Assembly (NCBI GenBank): GCA_021463645.1
Contig: JAJTYI010000009.1
Span: 255,269-300,756, forward strand
DNA from: a bacterium
GTDB lineage: Bacteria > Patescibacteriota > Dojkabacteria > B142 > OLB20
Length of the DNA: 45,488 nucleotides
Reading direction: 5' to 3'
A program made the position numbers and the translations under genes. How positions within the stretch are numbered: position 1 is the first letter of the stretch; each line of letters begins with the position of its first letter. Below, piece by piece: positions 31,346-39,959 of this stretch. The notes below the pieces were generated by a model, which made no database searches, had not been told where the DNA came from, and saw only the letters and a list, made by a program, of their open reading frames with translations.

Positions 31346-31386
31346 TTATGCTCATTTCAATTGTTTTCTGTTATAATTTTTCTCAT

Positions 31387-31435
31387 GCTGGAATAGCTTC
31401 CTTCTTCGCTAAAGCTACGAAGGACAAGCAGTTGG
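31387..31435 (+). pseudogene. 5' fragment copy of tRNA-Thr(GGT) interrupted by a 30-nt hairpin (31399-31428)
   Basis: GCTGGAATAGCT[tccttcttcgctaaagctacgaaggacaag]CAGTTGG; flanks are identical to nt 1-19 of the adjacent tRNA. Confidence 0.85.
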
Positions 31436-31451
31436 TTTTGAGACCAGCTAC

Positions 31452-31524
31452 GCTGGAATAGCTCAGTTGGCAGAGCACACCCATGGTAAGGGTGGGGTCC
31501 AGAGTTCGAATCTCTGTTCCAGCT
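31452..31524 (+). tRNA. tRNA-Thr(GGT), CCA not encoded
   Basis: GCTGGAA/TTCCAGC acceptor, CACCC-AT-GGT-AA-GGGTG, CAGAG-TTCGAAT-CTCTG. Confidence 0.96.
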
Positions 31525-31605
31525 TACTAACTTTTCTTAACGAGCTTGCGAGTTTAGAAAAGTTGTAATCCCGTAGATCTACCTTAGGGAGATCATACGG
31601 GATCT
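31524..31605 (+). repeat. Two-hairpin trailer cassette, homologous to 36526-36608
   Basis: TTAC.AACTTTTCT...AGAAAAGTT.GTAA followed by TCCCGTA...TACGGGA-TCT. Confidence 0.85.
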
Positions 31606-31688: not shown

Positions 31689-32543
31689 ATGAATAGTACA
31701 CCCACTGAAATTTACAATCTTTGTAGTTCTCTATTAACAACAGTTGCGCTAATCGCATTGAAATTTCACGGCAAAGTGGCTAACGATATTAAACTATCCA
31801 CAGACTTGACTGGTACCAGACAAGATCAAGCAAGGGTTACTGCAAAAACAGATATTGATGAATTGATTGAAGATATTTTCTTGCATAAATTATTAGAGGC
31901 AGGTATGTCACGATTAATTTCGGTCGATGTAGAAGAACAATCAAATTTGGTTGAAAAATTCACAACTTCAGGCGAATACAAGTTTGTTCTTGATCCTATT
32001 GACGGAACTATTAATTATTTGGATGCAAATGATAATGATTTCTCAATTAATGTTGCATTAGTTTCCAAAGAAGGAATAGAATTTAGCTTTATCGCATTCC
32101 CAATGCTTAATACTCTATTCACTAATCGTAAAGGTGAATATACAGTTGGTACACTAGCAGAAAACTTGGAGATTAATTTTCAAAATAAATTTGAAGTTAC
32201 CGATGATACTCACAAAATTAGCAATCTAATACAGCATAATCGTAGAACTCCGGAAGAAATACTTTCTAATTTAACCAATCATAAGTTACAAATTACTCCT
32301 TCTAATGGTCTATACTTTCCAATACTAGATATTCTTGCGGGTAAATGTGATGCCGTAATAGCAGGAACGCCGATGGTGAGGGATATATTACTTCATGAAA
32401 TAATAGCTGGATTGTATCCTGAAATTTTTGAAATGTATAACTTCAAAGGTAATCGGCTCGATTATTTTTCCGAGCCAAGATTGAAAGAATTTGTATTCGC
32501 TAAAAAAGGACTGAAAAAAATAATCATTAATAGAGAAGCCTGA
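31689..32543 (+). CDS. Inositol monophosphatase family protein (divergent)
   Basis: KTDID, EE, VLDPIDGTINY. Confidence 0.8.
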   Translation: MNSTPTEIYNLCSSLLTTVALIALKFHGKVANDIKLSTDLTGTRQDQARVTAKTDIDELIEDIFLHKLLEAGMSRLISVDVEEQSNLVEKFTTSGEYKFVLDPIDGTINYLDANDNDFSINVALVSKEGIEFSFIAFPMLNTLFTNRKGEYTVGTLAENLEINFQNKFEVTDDTHKISNLIQHNRRTPEEILSNLTNHKLQITPSNGLYFPILDILAGKCDAVIAGTPMVRDILLHEIIAGLYPEIFEMYNFKGNRLDYFSEPRLKEFVFAKKGLKKIIINREA

Positions 32544-32561
32544 AAAGCTATGATAAAGTGA

Positions 32562-33152
32562 GTGAATATTACGAAATTATATCAAATGAACACAGCCGAT
32601 AATAAATCAGAAAAAATAGACATTTTAGACAACCAAGGAAGGGTTACATCTCAATCAAAAACTCGAGACTTAATCCATAAAGATGGAAATTGGCATCAGT
32701 CTATACATCTATACATTTTAGATAAAAATAATCGTGTATTATTTCAAAGACGCTCGAAAGATAAGATGCTGTTTGCAAGTATGTACGCATGCCCAGTTGG
32801 TGGCCACATTAAATCTGGGGAAGCACCACTTTCCACATTAGTAAAAGAATCACTTGAAGAAATAAATTTACAAATTAAAACCGAAGATTTGACCTATCTA
32901 GGTATTGATAGAGTTGGATATCACAATCCTAAAGTCGATTTATCTGAGAACGAATTTGTTCATATATATATTCTAAATCTTGACGAAGAAATAAACTTAA
33001 ATGTGGAAAATGCTGAAGTTGAAGGTTTATTTTGGTTTGACTTCGATGACTTTAAAACTAAAGTCCGTTCGAAGAACGAAGAGTTTATGCCCTGTTGGAT
33101 TATCTACGAAAAGATTATTGATTATGTTGAGAACTTGAAAAAGTTTATTTGA
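32562..33152 (+). CDS. NUDIX hydrolase, IPP-isomerase-like
   Basis: HKDGNWHQSIH, LFQRRS, GGHIKSGE...KESLEEINL, ENE. Confidence 0.85.
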   Translation: MNITKLYQMNTADNKSEKIDILDNQGRVTSQSKTRDLIHKDGNWHQSIHLYILDKNNRVLFQRRSKDKMLFASMYACPVGGHIKSGEAPLSTLVKESLEEINLQIKTEDLTYLGIDRVGYHNPKVDLSENEFVHIYILNLDEEINLNVENAEVEGLFWFDFDDFKTKVRSKNEEFMPCWIIYEKIIDYVENLKKFI

Positions 33153-33186
33153 GGTCTCAATATTACTGTTTTAAAATAAGTTTCAG

Positions 33187-34446
33187 TCAGCCACCGATGA
33201 ATGTAGTACTCCCAGATCTCTCAACAGGATTCCACTCACAATTAAATGTACCTTTTTTTCTTTCGGACATAATTTTTTTAATGCTTATCAATCCAACAAC
33301 ACTCACTAAATACTCATAATACACTACAAGATACATAGGAACCATTAACAGAATCGATAAAAAGGATAATTTCAATCGTTCCACTAAATTATAACCGTTA
33401 GAAGCTCCCAACATTTGGAACGTTGTAAAAGTAACAAATACAATTATACATGTAATCAACGTTCCATAATCGTTCACCTGAATAATCAGGTATAGGACGT
33501 AACCCAGAATCAACGGCTCAAGTAAATAAGAGAATTCGGCATAAAGTGCATAAGGTAAGTATATCCAACTTAGTAAAAAGTTGTATCGAGTGGAAAAGAA
33601 CAACTTTCTTCGTTTAAAGAATGACTGATATCTCCCGTATTTCCATCTAATTCTTTGTTTATACAAATCTGGTAAGCTCAAGACCGCTTCAGTGTATACG
33701 ACAACATTTGGACTATAACCAATTTTTTTGTCTTTTCCGTAAAATTCAATTATTTTCATGGAAAGATCTATATCTTCGGTTATTGTATCCGTATCATATA
33801 AACCAACTTCCTTTAATTCTGTTAATCTATACATAGACCCTACTCCCCCAATAATATATTGGATATGTGCAAAGACCTCGGCCTTTTTCATCTGATAATT
33901 CAACAAATACTCAACGCGTTGAAGCAAATTTAAGAACCCTTTATCAGCGAGAATTTTGACATTGGCAGAAAGAGCTACTAAGTTCTCATCTCTAAATTCC
34001 TTGACAGCGTTTTCTATTGCATTTGGAGATAGCATTGAGTCGGCATCTAAACACATAACTAATGTACCATTAGCATATTTAAGTCCGAGATTTAATGCTT
34101 TAGCTTTTCCACGAACTTGAACATCCACTACTTTTACTCCAAAATATTCTCTTTGAAATTTACAAGCAATTCTCTTAGTTGCGTCAGTACTGCTATCATT
34201 TACAATGATAAGCTCAATGTACTTATAAGTGCTTGCTGCTACACTTTTGATGTTTCTTAATAGCGTTTTTTCTTCATTATGAGCAGGAACGATTACCGTT
34301 ACTAATGGATTATATTCTTGTAATTCTTTTTGGCCATGTCTTCTACTCCTAATTATATCGTGAACGTCACTTCCTATAAGAAAAAAAGCCATCCTGATTA
34401 GATTGATAGCACTTAGAACAAAGACTAGATATGCAATAAATATCAA
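33187..34446 (-). CDS. Processive glycosyltransferase family 2 (PgaC/IcaA-like)
   Basis: VPAHNEE, DSSTD, GKAKALN, LDAD, TEDID, QRIRW; C-terminal TM helices. Confidence 0.92.
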   Translation of the reverse strand: MIFIAYLVFVLSAINLIRMAFFLIGSDVHDIIRSRRHGQKELQEYNPLVTVIVPAHNEEKTLLRNIKSVAASTYKYIELIIVNDSSTDATKRIACKFQREYFGVKVVDVQVRGKAKALNLGLKYANGTLVMCLDADSMLSPNAIENAVKEFRDENLVALSANVKILADKGFLNLLQRVEYLLNYQMKKAEVFAHIQYIIGGVGSMYRLTELKEVGLYDTDTITEDIDLSMKIIEFYGKDKKIGYSPNVVVYTEAVLSLPDLYKQRIRWKYGRYQSFFKRRKLFFSTRYNFLLSWIYLPYALYAEFSYLLEPLILGYVLYLIIQVNDYGTLITCIIVFVTFTTFQMLGASNGYNLVERLKLSFLSILLMVPMYLVVYYEYLVSVVGLISIKKIMSERKKGTFNCEWNPVERSGSTTFIGG

Positions 34447-34646
34447 TTGTGGTTTTCAATATCGGTGGAAATTGTTTTTATAGTCCTAGTTATAAGAACT
34501 AGGGCGAACACAAGTCCAAAACCAACAAATAAATATTGAAAAATCGAGCTGCCGGTTGCGGCAAGGACCATTCCAGAAGCTCCAGATGCTGTGGCTAATC
34601 CAGCAACTTGACCAACTTGTAATAATGGTGATGTAGATCCAGACAT
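34443..34646 (-). CDS. 67-aa peptide with an LPXTG-like motif (LAATG), a TM helix and basic residues
   Basis: MSGSTSPLLQVGQVAGLATASGASGMVLAATGSSIFQYLFVGFGLVFALVLITRTIK; TTGA overlap with the GT2 start; ATG at 34646 preferred. Confidence 0.65.
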   Translation of the reverse strand: MSGSTSPLLQVGQVAGLATASGASGMVLAATGSSIFQYLFVGFGLVFALVLITRTIKTISTDIENHN

Positions 34647-34698
34647 GATATTAAAATAATTATATATAATGATATCATATCTACCTTGTCGAATCAAC

Positions 34699-34980
34699 CT
34701 ATTTACGGACAATATGGGGGGTGTTTCGAAGATTCCCAATATTTAATTTAAGACGATTTATTTTCTCCTCCCTACTCCATTTCTTAATCTCAATCTCTCG
34801 TTTCAAAGCTTCAGACCAGCTCTCGAAACATTCCGTATAAATTAATTTAAATGGCTTCCTGCTGTTAACGTATTTTGACCCTTTGCCACTATTGTGTACT
34901 TCTAAACGCTCTTCAATATCTTTAGCAACACCTGTATAAAGTGAGTTGTCCCTGCATAATAATATATATAAGTTGCACAT
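34699..34980 (-). CDS. Stand-alone GIY-YIG nuclease (YhbQ/UPF0213-like)
   Basis: LYILLCRDNSLYTG, RLEVHNSGKGSKY, ALKREIEIK. Confidence 0.92.
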   Translation of the reverse strand: MCNLYILLCRDNSLYTGVAKDIEERLEVHNSGKGSKYVNSRKPFKLIYTECFESWSEALKREIEIKKWSREEKINRLKLNIGNLRNTPHIVRK

Positions 34981-34984
34981 CAGG

Positions 34985-35284
34985 TTATTTGATAATGGAT
35001 TTTGAAATTGCCCCCACGAAAAGCCTGTAAGCAGGTCTTTTCTCAGGTTTATAAATGTAATGAATTCCTATTAAAGTATCACAATTATCGCAGTATAAAT
35101 CACTATTCTCAGATTTAGTATTAATATCGAATATTCTGTCTAAATATAGTCGTTTAAGAATCCCTGGTCCATCTTTTTGATATTTAGCAATTTTAGACAT
35201 ACAACTACTACATTTTATTTGGTAGAGCTTCGTGTTCGAACCTCTACTCTTATAATATCTGTCTTTTTGGATTTTGTATCTCAT
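34985..35284 (-). CDS. Hypothetical protein with two CxxC pairs (Zn-binding)
   Basis: CSSC...YQKDGPGILKRLYLDRI...CDNC. Confidence 0.7.
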   Translation of the reverse strand: MRYKIQKDRYYKSRGSNTKLYQIKCSSCMSKIAKYQKDGPGILKRLYLDRIFDINTKSENSDLYCDNCDTLIGIHYIYKPEKRPAYRLFVGAISKSIIK

Positions 35285-35955: not shown

Positions 35956-36023
35956 ATTAATTTGTAATAGCTCGTTATAATAAAAATGTTATGTTCGAAA
36001 AATCGATTGGGATGAAAAGTTTA

Positions 36024-36134
36024 CCCCGTGAATCGAACATAGTGAGATTGCACGGGGAATCCCTCCCTCTGCACCAATTCATTCAACGAACTTTGTGAGT
36101 TGAAAATGAATTGAGTGCCTGACTTTGGCAGGCA
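36024..36134 (+). repeat. Hairpin cassettes surrounding a 3'-end copy of tRNA-Tyr (36057-36076)
   Basis: CCCCGTG...CACGGGG (36024-36057), GAATCCCTCCCTCTGCA+CCA, CAATTCATT...AATGAATTG (36075-36113), TGCCTG...CAGGCA (36116-36134). Confidence 0.8.
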
Positions 36135-36294
36135 TAAGATTAGAATAGCTCTTTATAAGTAATATAATGCTGGAGTAGCTCAGTCCCGATAAATTGTAAC
36201 TCTGTTACAAATTTATCGTGGATCCTCACTGTTCTAATTCATCCCTTCTGGAGAAGGGAGGAAAGAACAGTGGGATTGGTAGAGTCCCGCAGGA

Positions 36295-36479
36295 GCTGGG
36301 ATAGCTTCCCGCTTCGCTTAAGCTACGCGGGACAGGCAGTTGGTTAGAGTCACTCCTCAGCTGGAGTAGCTCAGTTGGTAGAGCAACGGTTTTGTAAACC
36401 GTCGGTCATGGGTTCGAGTCCCCTCTCCAGCTGAGGAGTGATAAACAGTAGGTCGAGAGTTCGAATCTCTCCCCCAGCT
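36295..36479 (+). pseudogene. Middle tRNA shell (Thr-like, different isoacceptor) lacking the anticodon, with a 30-nt D-stem insert
   Basis: GCTGGGATAGCT[30 nt]CAGTTGGTTAGAG[...]TAAACAGTAGGTCGAGAGTTCGAATCTCTCCCCCAGC. Confidence 0.82.
36360..36432 (+). tRNA. tRNA-Thr(TGT), intact innermost gene, CCA not encoded
   Basis: GCTGGAG/CTCCAGC, GCTC/GAGC, ACGGT-TT-TGT-AA-ACCGT, GGGTTCGAGTCCC. Confidence 0.96.
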
Positions 36480-36525
36480 CCAACGGGATAAACCGTCGGT
36501 CATGGGTTCGAGTCCCCTCTCCAGC

Positions 36526-36608
36526 TTACTAGAGTTTCTTAATGAATAATGTGAATTTAGAAACTCTGTAATCCTCGAAATTGAGCGTAGCGAAATTATC
36601 GAGGATCT
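36526..36608 (+). repeat. Two-hairpin trailer cassette, homologous to 31524-31605
   Basis: TTAC.AGAGTTTCT...AGAAACTCT.GTAA followed by TCCTCGA...TCGAGGA-TCT. Confidence 0.85.
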
Positions 36609-37023: not shown

Positions 37024-37095
37024 AGGGTCATGATGTCAATGGTAGCATGGAGGTCTCCAAAACCTCTCGTCTAGGTTCGAATCCTAGTGACCCTG
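37024..37095 (+). tRNA. tRNA-Trp(CCA), CCA end not encoded
   Basis: AGGGTCA/TGACCCT, GAGGT-CT-CCA-AA-ACCTC, CTAGG-TTCGAAT-CCTAG. Confidence 0.96.
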
Positions 37096-37247
37096 TATGA
37101 AAGTATATAAGTAAAAAGCAAAATACTTTCGTCTAGGTTCCCCCGTATTAAATACGGGGCTAGTGACCATGTATGAAAGTATATAAGTAAAAAACAAAAT
37201 ACTTTCGTCTAGGTTCCCCCATATTGAATACGGGGTTAGTGGCCATG
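37096..37247 (+). repeat. Two tandem 76-bp units, each carrying an interrupted copy of the tRNA-Trp 3' end
   Basis: tatgaaagtat...atactt-TCGTCTAGGTTC[ccccgtattaaatacgggg]CTAGTGACCATG at 37096-37171 and 37172-37247. Confidence 0.9.
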
Positions 37248-38586: not shown

Positions 38587-39270
38587 ATGAAAAGATCAAA
38601 AAAATATCAAGCTGTGAAAACAAAAATTGATAAAAACAAGTCCTACTCTGCTGAGGAAATTCTTCAAATGATTAAAGACAATTCATTAACAAAATTCCCT
38701 GGTAGTGTTGAAGTTGAAGTTCGATTAAATCTAAATCAAAAACAGAAATCAGAGAGTTTCAGAGGGTCTCTATCTTTCCCTCATAATTTTGGAAAAGAAG
38801 TGAAAGTGCTCGCTTTTGTAGATCCAACCAATATCAAAACCGCAAAATCTGCGGATATAAGTGGTGGCGAAGAGTTAATTAGTAAAGTTGAGAAAGGTGA
38901 ATTGGAGTTTGATGTTGTACTTGCAATTCCTGCAATGATGCCTAAAATCGCTAGACTTGGAAAAGTACTAGGAAGAAAAGGTTTAATGCCCAATCCAAAA
39001 AACGGAACAGTTACAACAGATATGGAAAAAACTATAGAGAGATTCAAATCTGGTCAACGATCATACAAACTTTTACAAGAAGGTAAGTTTAATATGGTTA
39101 TTGGAAAAACCGATATGAAACCAGAAGAATTGATTGCCAATTATGAAGCATTCATGAAGTCTGTAAGAGAGATAACAAAGAAATACGGAAATTCTATCAT
39201 CGCAAGTATTCGCATAAAACCTACAATGGGACCTGCCCTTGTTGTTAGCGAATCAACTCAATCAAATTGA
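38587..39270 (+). CDS. rplA: 50S ribosomal protein L1
   Basis: LGKVLGRKGLMPNPKNGTVT, PTMGP. Confidence 0.97.
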   Translation: MKRSKKYQAVKTKIDKNKSYSAEEILQMIKDNSLTKFPGSVEVEVRLNLNQKQKSESFRGSLSFPHNFGKEVKVLAFVDPTNIKTAKSADISGGEELISKVEKGELEFDVVLAIPAMMPKIARLGKVLGRKGLMPNPKNGTVTTDMEKTIERFKSGQRSYKLLQEGKFNMVIGKTDMKPEELIANYEAFMKSVREITKKYGNSIIASIRIKPTMGPALVVSESTQSN

Positions 39271-39307: not shown

Positions 39308-39420
39308 GTCAAAGACAATAGGCATCTTACTTCGCTGAAGCTTCGTAAGATTAAGACCTATCGAGACGGAAAACAGATACAATATTATTATTTATCTAAA
39401 TGCCGTTTAGGCATTTTTTT
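39308..39420 (+). promoter_or_regulatory. L10 leader with downstream attenuator-like terminator
   Basis: GTCAAAGACAATAGG...TAAGACCTATCGAGAC resembles the L10-leader core upstream of rplJ; hairpin AAATGCC/GGCATTT with U-tract at 39398-39420. Confidence 0.75.
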
Positions 39421-39434
39421 ATTATTTAAATACA

Positions 39435-39959
39435 ATGGCTAAAACCAGAAAATTTAAAGAGGAATTAGTAAAAATCTACAGAGAGAGAATTAACAATTCA
39501 AAGTCTGTCTTTATTATTAAGCCTTCAGGAATCACTGCAAACGAATCCGTACAGATTAAAAAAGACCTAATTAGTGTTGGATCTTCTTATAATGTGGTTA
39601 AGAATTCGATTTTTTCAATCGCACTTGAACAAGAAGGTTTACCTGCCGTTGAAAACCTAGACGCAAACGAACATGCGGTAGTGTTTACTGGTGAGAATAT
39701 CTCAGAAGCAGCAAAAGTCATAAATACATTCGCAAAAGATACTGGCAGAGTCGAAATACAGGCTGGAATTTATGATAAAAATCTAATATCAGGAGAAGAA
39801 GTTGTAAAATTAGCTGAATTGCCAAGTAAAGATGTCTTAATCGCTCAGGTTTTGAATTTGTTCAATGCCCCACTTACTGGCTTTGTTAATGTAATAAATG
39901 CAAATACTAGAAACCTTGTTTATGTTATGAAGGCAATAGCTGACAATAAACAAGCATAA
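39435..39959 (+). CDS. rplJ: 50S ribosomal protein L10
   Basis: VVKNS, LAELPSKDVLIAQ; position in rplKAJL. Confidence 0.95.
   Translation: MAKTRKFKEELVKIYRERINNSKSVFIIKPSGITANESVQIKKDLISVGSSYNVVKNSIFSIALEQEGLPAVENLDANEHAVVFTGENISEAAKVINTFAKDTGRVEIQAGIYDKNLISGEEVVKLAELPSKDVLIAQVLNLFNAPLTGFVNVINANTRNLVYVMKAIADNKQA

Follow-up and report, generated by a model that had tools for sequence, protein, structure and literature searches.

A 30-nt hairpin with a variable stem and a near-invariant internal loop recurs in the D arm of leftover tRNA starts in a member of the Dojkabacteria

In families of repetitive extragenic palindromic (REP) sequences the stem is conserved and a terminal tag, GTAG or CGTC, adjoins it; such families are species-specific and abundant, as those of MITEs (miniature inverted-repeat transposable elements) usually are too. 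Rickettsia palindromic elements (RPEs), of about 100-150 nt, are known from one genus only. Here we analyse a 45,488-nt stretch of a dojkabacterial genome (hereafter the window), in which a hairpin unit of 30 nt sits twice within the leftover start of a tRNA-Thr gene. By kind this unit is a REP/RPE-like miniature palindrome, although it has neither the tag nor the conserved stem of the REPs, and its genome has no match to a REP-associated tyrosine transposase (RAYT). According to the accessible part of PMC3733652, unpaired residues at the loop edge of the Escherichia coli REP are needed for cleavage by RAYT, and the accessible part of PMC2229807 describes RPEs fused into transfer-messenger RNA (tmRNA) and RNase P RNA genes.

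The unit and the RPEs are alike in being small palindromic repeats with no known transposase that are tolerated in frame in protein genes and also in stable-RNA genes. Unlike the RPEs as described, the unit measures 30 nt, has a free stem around an invariant internal loop, is found in records with many different phylum labels and prefers a site in the D arm of tRNA. The difference in size speaks against a sequence relationship with the RPE families. With REP and REPIN repeats it shares a hairpin size in the range of 20-40 nt, the location of some copies within genes, and occurrence as singles, dimers and arrays. Unlike in REPs, however, it is the core that is conserved, the stem being variable (the 69 distinct copies have 46 different left arms), there is no terminal GTAG or CGTC tag, GTAG being found on the complementary strand only and inside the internal loop, and no Y1 transposase is present in the genome under study (G000) or in its congener G004. 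Hairpin repeats of organelles, for which we know of no conserved internal loop or tRNA D-arm site, differ from the unit in being organellar and lineage-specific. They resemble it in being short and in invading compact A+T-rich genomes, as the accessible parts of PMC2800124 and PMC4524435 describe for the repetitive hairpin elements (RHE) of sponge mitochondria and for fungal and algal palindromes. Another resemblance is to the TIGR (tandem interspaced guide RNA) arrays of candidate phyla radiation (CPR) bacteria and phages, which encode tigRNAs and in which short repeats alternate conserved and variable parts, likewise in CPR genomes; in the portion of PMC12045711 available to us, their 9-nt spacers A and B are set between repeats of the edge and loop kinds, have a Tas gene beside them and show no covariation. 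We rejected a TIGR-Tas array because the variable arms of the unit are mutually complementary, its copies are mostly solitary and no gene recurs nearby.

A search of the accessible literature, with supplements excluded, found four 15-nt forms of the motif in no paper, and no account of a loop-conserved 30-nt unit or of a stub-hairpin-gene architecture at tRNA nt 12|13. A 30-nt element recurring after base 12 of a leftover tRNA start, upstream of the working gene, is apparently undescribed. We read the two hairpins of the window as copies of a discrete, non-autonomous, palindromic insertion element of 30 nt that acts at the DNA level, and put the probability of this reading at roughly 0.55.

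A preliminary description of this DNA had reported two 30-nt hairpins, at 31399-31428 and 36307-36336, each between the 12-nt start of a tRNA and CAGTTGG, and we reproduce every coordinate and every letter of both. The two copies differ at unit positions 4, 5, 13, 22, 23 and 29. As had also been claimed, four of these positions form two pairs with compensatory changes, 4/23 and 5/22, which go from T-A to C-G and from T-A to G-C. Both copies fold into a 6-bp stem that leads through a 3x3 internal loop to 2 bp and a tetraloop, with energies of -7.9 (copy 1) and -11.6 kcal/mol (copy 2; z = -2.34 each). The 51-nt blocks around the two hairpins are 86% identical, and a covariance model of the unit built from 69 distinct copies (R1; cut-off for matches in G000, E <= 1) finds copy 1 with 46.7 bits and copy 2 with 38.5 bits (genome-wide E = 1.2e-8 and 1.7e-6, respectively), so that their likeness is beyond chance.

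The first copy belongs to the tRNA-Thr(GGU) locus, one of six tRNA genes that ARAGORN and Rfam place in the window; all features given here for this and the next locus are on the plus strand. An extended -10-like sequence, TGTTATAAT (31369-31377), is followed by a stub, GCTGGAATAGCT (31387-31398), which equals tRNA-Thr(GGU) nt 1-12 and is identical at 12/12 positions to 31452-31463. After the hairpin, the stub continues with tRNA nt 13-19, CAGTTGG as in the neighbouring gene, plus TT (31429-31437). A spacer follows (31438-31451) whose TTGAGA..TAC resembles the native leader of G004 and whose CCAGC (31444-31448) is complementary to GCTGG of the stub; the -10-like box and CCAGC both lie where the preliminary description had put them. 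The intact tRNA-Thr(GGU) gene occupies 31452-31524 (ARAGORN; Rfam, 63.7 bits). We compared the locus with those of four congeners, G001 to G004. G004 has TGATATAAT at the place homologous to the -10-like box, then a plain leader and then the tRNA; a plain gene behind a -10 box is likewise found in G002, and G001 has a stub with a hairpin of a different loop at the same junction.

The second copy lies in a nested tRNA-Thr(UGU) locus (36169-36526), in which an outer gene, A, is split by a gene of a second type, B, and B is itself split by an intact inner gene. Gene A has the position and flanks of the plain gene of G004. Its 5' stub, tRNA-Thr(UGU) nt 1-16, takes up 36169-36184 and is followed at 36185-36294 by two further, different hairpin inserts (36185-36218 and 36222-36276), which alternate with TGG and TGGTAGAG of A, and by the arm TCCCGCAGGA (inverted repeat I23); the second of these inserts has a homologous hairpin in G003, with compensatory changes. 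The 5' stub of B, GCTGGGATAGCT (36295-36306), corresponds to nt 1-12 of the second tRNA-Thr(UGU) type, the 3' half of B being that of an intact gene of G002. After copy 2 of the unit, B continues with CAGTTGGTTAGAG (nt 13-25), which is followed by the 10-nt arm TCACTCCTCA (together 36337-36359; inverted repeat I6, 17 nt, 100% complementary). The inner tRNA-Thr(UGU) gene (36360-36432; Rfam, 69.3 bits) is identical to the gene of G004 and lies between the arms of a perfect 10-bp inverted repeat, whose sequence is another one altogether in G003. The region 36433-36526 then holds the arm GAGGAGTGA, the 3' part of B (36442-36479), CCAACGGGA and the 3' part of A (36489-36526), and the three 38-nt 3' halves recur at a 47-nt spacing (direct repeat family D2). 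Both hairpin-bearing stubs of the window stand without the remainder of the tRNA.

The 30-nt unit has a variable 6-bp stem, a near-invariant internal loop, a short apical helix with its loop, and a 4-nt tail. It starts with YCC or TTC and ends in CARG or CTAA, and the strands of the internal loop, CUUCG on the 5' side and CUWCG (A/U) on the 3' side, are nearly invariant from G000 to other phyla and viral contigs. Covariation was measured on 72 copies from 24 genomes of the class (69 distinct), selected by the exact loop alone and thus with unselected stems; the two inner pairs are fixed by the search pattern and hence invariable in this set. Among the 69 distinct copies, 92.9% of the stem cells are paired, against 69.9 +/- 1.2% after shuffling, and sliding the partner by 1-3 columns leaves only 24-42% paired. 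Five of the six outer pairs are changed on both sides, in 146 cells compared to 50 in shuffled sets, and none of 500 shuffles reaches either the observed pairing or the observed covariation score. A separate count on the six outer pairs alone gives 90.6% paired, against 59.9 +/- 1.7%. The 46 different left arms are pyrimidine-rich. These results bear out the proposal of the preliminary description that the structure is maintained, the stem being kept by compensatory change, and in this the unit covaries as a functional structured RNA motif does. The apical helix also covaries among the G000 matches to the model, in which the inner pairs were not fixed (GCT/AGC, GCC/GGC, GCAT/ATGC, GTC/GAC), so that the constant part is the internal loop and its two closing pairs. 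The asymmetry between G-U and A-C cells (7 wobble versus 20 C-A/A-C) was judged uninformative as a test of the strand because the mismatches are mostly at the outermost pairs. Rfam 15 returned tRNA and tmRNA alone, and no family for the unit, both with gathering scores for the window and with E <= 0.1 for 13 loci.

The junction of the two window copies, TAGCT|CAG after tRNA nt 12, recurs widely. In a scan of one genome per species across 185,579 species, TAGCT followed by the unit was found in 83 stretches, with about 0.1 expected by chance (our own arithmetic), and beside at least 13 tRNA identities, which confirms the site specificity that had been proposed; neither random target sites nor stems free of covariation were found. 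The 80 listed titles comprise 41 candidate-phyla names, 31 other phyla (including 12 'uncultured Gammaproteobacteria') and 8 unnamed or other records, these labels being the submitters' own. A tRNA gene on the same strand follows within 300 nt in 55 of the 83 copies, and 41 of these 55 have a stub identical to nt 1-12 of that tRNA; the remaining matches cover 11 nt (3 cases), 10 nt (6), 9 nt (3) and 7 nt (2). The stub continues for 0-29 nt past the hairpin (for at most 1 nt in 17/55), and the tRNA gene starts 10-191 nt from the hairpin end, with no gene in between. In 4 copies out of 83 the nearest tRNA is upstream. The 5' stub that holds the unit at the D-arm site is a dead one, and the same tRNA follows intact further downstream.

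Several simple explanations of this arrangement were set aside. A tRNA intron was rejected, as removal of the 30 nt restores a tRNA in none of the 83 copies. For the majority of 46 distinct cases, the repeat runs past tRNA nt 1 by 0-7 nt upstream; over all 46, its length is 12 nt in 13 cases, 13 in 8, 14-16 in 15, 17-40 in 7 and 10-11 in 3. We dropped a fixed 12-bp target duplication because the hairpin itself bounds the repeat and the left edge varies; the same spread of lengths gives no support to copying from the 5' end of a mature tRNA via an RNA intermediate. It might also be supposed that one old stub with its hairpin was copied along with the tRNA-Thr loci, without any site specificity, as the 86% identity over 51 nt and a TTTT..CAGC(T) pattern common to the GGU, CGU and G001 spacers would suggest. 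But the stubs match their own neighbours: the genome has a further copy at the same tRNA position upstream of tRNA-Thr(CGU) (contig C9:4938-4967, minus strand), and there the stub resumes after the hairpin with CAGGT, matching CAGGTGG of its own gene. Moreover, the stub of the GGU locus is absent in G004 and G002, the hairpin of B is absent in G003, and the same junction is found beside at least 13 tRNA identities under many phylum labels, all of which makes such shared descent very improbable.

The congeners also show the unit present or absent at otherwise matching places. The tmRNA gene of G000 (C5:91729-92191, minus strand, 463 nt, 117.5 bits), which ARAGORN missed, carries a unit in the loop of helix 5, the helix after the tag stop codon. 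In an alignment of 8 tmRNAs out of 15 extracted, helix 5 has exactly 30 extra bases in G000, none in G004, G001 and G002, and a different insert in G003; no repeat surrounds the unit. The stub of B is uninterrupted at 12|13 in G003 and holds the unit there in G000. The claim of an insertion is thereby upheld, since G003 has the same tRNA-Thr stub minus 30 nt and the tmRNAs of G004, G001 and G002 are without the 30-nt unit of G000. Downstream of tRNA-Ser(CGA), one unit in G000 compares with at least two intact units and a degenerate third, in tandem, in G004. As a separate observation, the tmRNAs of 30 relatives measure 375-511 nt by match coordinates, and most of the relatives' tmRNAs that were inspected directly precede a hairpin that pairs with their 3' end or CCA.

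Within G000 (1,202,451 bases in 9 contigs, 41 tRNA genes by ARAGORN, 88% complete), the model gives 31 matches to the unit, and the search of genome and relatives that the preliminary description had suggested does recover the family. For 24 of the 31, a tRNA or tmRNA gene is no more than 300 nt away; the zone this close to such genes makes up at most 2.4% of the genome. Of these 24 copies, 21 are on the strand of the gene and 3 are opposite; in the class sample, 19 of 26 copies are on the strand of the tRNA and 7 opposite. Judged by eye from sequence contexts, copies near tRNAs in G000 follow nt 9, 10 or 12 where they lie in 5' stubs; further insertion positions are 43|44 and, in the T loop of 3' fragments, the place after GGTTC (56|57), the T-loop site being occupied by other hairpin families as well. 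Other copies directly follow tRNA 3' ends or form tandem 30-nt arrays. At five loci (L105, L114, L046, L120 and L039) the unit comes directly after a tRNA or tmRNA 3' end and CCA is the first three bases of its arm. Partial duplicates of stable-RNA genes are frequent in the genome: the first 9 nt of the gene are repeated within 400 nt upstream in 11 of 42 genes and the last 10 nt are repeated downstream in 12 of 42, with none in swapped controls, and both counts are too low because ARAGORN ends are sometimes one base off. The window holds a third copy, at 39325-39354 (C9:294593-294622, plus strand; R1, 41.9 bits, E = 2.3e-7), in the gap between plus-strand open reading frames (ORFs) at 38587-39270 and 39435-39959, which from their sizes and order would be rplA and rplJ.

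This abundance of tRNA fragments recalls the partial tRNA duplications at attachment sites, where fragments also lie beside an intact gene and 3' fragments start in the anticodon or T loop. The known attachment duplications concern the 3' part and kilobases of element DNA; here we find upstream 5' stubs, distances of 10-191 nt and a stub split by a hairpin. The stubs and hairpins could nonetheless be scars of site-specific integrative elements at tRNA attachment sites, the hairpin being the end of the element and the stub a duplicated identity block. Partial tRNA duplication at integration sites is established, as far as the accessible part of PMC9897764 goes. In G000, a serine recombinase (C4:133795) lies beside tRNA-His, near three 3' fragments with inverted units that are 5.5-7 kb apart; a perfect 64-65-nt direct repeat surrounds an insert of about 150 nt in tRNA-Lys(UUU); and 3' fragments begin in the anticodon loop or the T loop, both of which are reportedly known crossover sublocations (Williams, 2002). 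However, only 10-191 nt and no gene separate the stub hairpin from the tRNA gene, and the hairpin lies within the duplicated block (nt 12|13) and not beside it. The unit also occurs without a nearby tRNA, inside ORFs and, without a flanking repeat, inside tmRNA helix 5, and no recombinase recurs beside 80 loci of the D-arm site, where no ORF family of any kind is found at more than 6. We consider this origin unlikely.

Copies inside protein genes provide a different view of the unit. Among 49 listed exact-loop copies in 3-kb loci (some overlapping, with a few duplicate rows), 15 are within ORFs of at least 70 aa. Ten long open frames (305-673 aa) hold 11 copies, 7 sense and 4 antisense, in different reading frames and with no stop introduced. 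Six of the seven frames scanned have a Pfam match (GatB, trigger factor, AlkZ-like, class I tRNA synthetase, PMT and M17 peptidase), and in GatB and trigger factor the copy falls between two matched domains. A frame resembling asparagine synthetase (AsnB-like) has about 30 extra residues at the unit when compared to solved homologues, and the M17 peptidase frame also has extra residues at the position of the unit. In-frame copies in intact protein genes, together with copies in stable-RNA genes, are a feature of the RPEs that the unit shares. Overall, the unit lands mostly in loop or junction positions of tRNA-like DNA and can sit in frame inside protein genes.

Beyond this genome, a 16-mer of the unit is found with at most one mismatch in 13 of 40 relatives (2 control matches), and exactly in 24 of 220 genomes of the class (no control match) and, within an even sample of 401 genomes across the phylum, in 113 (1 control match). 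Five records labelled Chthoniobacterales, Planctomycetota, TM6, Gammaproteobacteria and Nitrospirales have 2-11 exact copies each, with no control match. From 113 matching viral stretches we examined 98 copies in 89 loci; at least 5 of the 6 arm pairs are present in 72 of the 98, and 1 of the 98 lies within 200 nt of a tRNA. Some of these records are giant-virus bins, and viral bins may contain cellular DNA.

The symmetric internal loop, the strand bias and the five CCA junctions raise the question of whether the unit instead acts as RNA. It could be a functional module of stable-RNA precursors, namely a protein-binding stem-loop in leaders or trailers, for processing, end protection or control of maturation, with the stub competing with the 5' strand of the tRNA itself for the 3' acceptor strand. 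Such a role would fit stems that covary around an invariant, two-fold symmetric internal loop, the 21 of 24 copies on the strand of the RNA gene, the low copy number with conservation across phyla, CCA as the first arm bases right after the tRNA or tmRNA 3' end at five loci, and the identity of stub and gene in 41 of 55 cases. In addition, sequences from four RNA libraries, which as assembled contigs carry no information on transcripts, ends or strand, span from 31404, 31413, 31428 or 31443 to 31575; they end on G004-like sequence and are possibly DNA carry-over. In the same libraries there is also a variant of the tRNA-Thr(UGU) locus, whose stub bears a hairpin and whose gene is un-nested. 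On the other hand, an RNA module does not sit well with in-frame copies of both orientations within protein genes, with good hairpins in 72 of 98 viral copies of which 1 of 98 is near a tRNA, with the absence of the unit at the same loci in close congeners, with the many copies within dead fragments, with the opposite orientation of 7 of 26 class copies and 3 of 24 G000 copies, or with the lack of an Rfam match. We regard this role as possible and as a serious rival to the insertion element, but as the less likely of the two.

A DNA-level insertion element accounts best for the clean 30-nt differences between congeners, for in-frame copies that face either way within genes, for viral copies that lie away from tRNAs and for turnover from one congener to another. 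How such an element might move can be outlined. The unit would move as a folded single strand, and an enzyme provided in trans, by the host or by some other mobile element, would recognise its symmetric internal loop; the invariance of this loop points to a conserved partner acting in trans. Entry may occur into single-stranded loops exposed at heavily transcribed stable-RNA genes. Insertion into a single-copy tRNA would be lethal, and the survivors would be insertions in a redundant partial duplicate, or those whose repair re-copies the start of the gene; we propose that the stub-plus-gene pattern arises because only such insertions survive. If only paired copies are recognised, stem complementarity would be kept, possibly aided by quasi-palindrome self-correction through template switching.

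Several points weigh against the insertion element. There is no match to a Y1 transposase (PF01797) or of the TnpB type in G000, which is 88% complete, nor any PF01797 match in G004, and the only recombinases of G000 are two large serine recombinases. A link to RAYT or Y1 enzymes finds no support among relatives either, as Y1_Tnp is found in 7 of the 13 that have the motif and in 7 of the 27 that lack it. The low copy number (2-20 per genome) and the near-identical loop across phyla are unlike REP and MITE families, and this profile fits a functional RNA motif at least as well; the bias to the strand of the tRNA (21/24 in G000, 19/26 in the class) suggests a role at the RNA level. Moreover, the stub is identical to the gene at 12 of 12 positions in 41 of 55 cases and the part after the hairpin is often lost (at most 1 nt left in 17 of 55), a combination of kept stub and lost remainder that would not be expected if a duplicate simply decayed. 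In nearly all cases the stub is upstream, 55 copies having a same-strand tRNA downstream compared to 4 with the nearest tRNA upstream, and the insertion element explains this position through selection alone. Finally, the direction of gain and loss rests on parsimony between the compared sequences only, no insertion event having been observed.

The kept stub and its upstream position may be viewed differently, if the stub and hairpin are the working end of an undescribed system, spread across bacteria and viruses and aimed at tRNA genes. A tRNA-start segment of 12-19 nt and the invariant scaffold hairpin would then form a guide or recognition module, of DNA or RNA, that directs insertion to U12|C13 and ensures that the gene start is re-copied. 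We find this doubtful; if it were true, an essential gene could be invaded without loss.

Other unusual features lie in the window and elsewhere in the genome. After tRNA-Trp, two tandem 76-nt units (37084-37235) are 95% identical, each ending in CTAGGTTC and a hairpin of the CCCCGT..ACGGGG type followed by the tRNA 3' strand, which makes them repeats of a 3' fragment split in the T loop. A tRNA-Tyr 3' fragment, AATCCCTCCCTCTGC, at 36030-36072 has a hairpin of the same family before it, and related hairpins are found behind tRNA-Lys(UUU) and tRNA-Leu(UAA) elsewhere in G000. In the tRNA-Lys(UUU) gene (C4:178800-179300, minus strand), the perfect repeat consists of 48 nt of upstream flank and tRNA nt 1-17, and the insert it surrounds is in the D loop; a related insert occurs after nt 14 of both tRNA-Gln stubs. 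At both tRNA-Asn and both tRNA-Gln genes, 3' fragments have their T arm split, at the same positions, by a conserved module of about 110 nt with a CTGTCTGCCGACAGGCAGG hairpin (C4:185540-186000, C6:118700-118890, C9:119000-119210 and C2:33570-33900). Three near-identical blocks, each a tRNA-His 3' fragment with an inverted unit, start at C4:122554, 128099 and 135369, close to two identical tRNA-His genes (C4:135432 and 143613) and to the serine recombinase mentioned above, which has 551 aa; these blocks look like tandem integrated elements.

Between tRNA-Thr(GGU) and tRNA-Ala(CGC), the window has about 3 kb (31689-35284) that are extra relative to G004 and G001, with ORFs matching inositol monophosphatase, NUDIX, a family 2 glycosyltransferase and a 93-aa GIY-YIG protein (34699-34980, minus strand). 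Three of five tblastn matches to this small GIY-YIG protein adjoin genes of tRNA-Ala, tRNA-His and tRNA-Ser (C9:289970-290248, C4:143682-143930 and C6:254426-254629), and the match at tRNA-His overlaps the start of the gene. Near 36000, the GC skew changes sign, from negative to positive, and the genes diverge in orientation, which may mark a replication origin. A tRNA-Ile with the anticodon UAU is called at C5:1705-1778, and tRNA-Ile(GAU) and tRNA-Ala(UGC) are missing from the assembly, probably because they lie in an unassembled rRNA operon.

If the insertion element is real, its 30 nt would place it among the smallest discrete insertion elements known, and it would be unusual in combining a free stem with an invariant core and in having a defined target inside the tRNA D arm. 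Besides candidate-phyla bacteria, its reach would take in viral contigs and records with the labels Planctomycetota, Verrucomicrobiota, Proteobacteria and Dependentiae, and the recurrence of stub, hairpin and gene at 55 loci would make the link between insertion and partial duplication directly testable. If the unit proves to be an RNA module, it would represent an uncurated, widely conserved RNA motif linked to stable-RNA genes. Stubs and nested fragments can mislead the annotation of tRNA and tmRNA genes, as with the 463-nt tmRNA of this genome, and the unit gives housekeeping proteins in-frame inserts of 10 codons.

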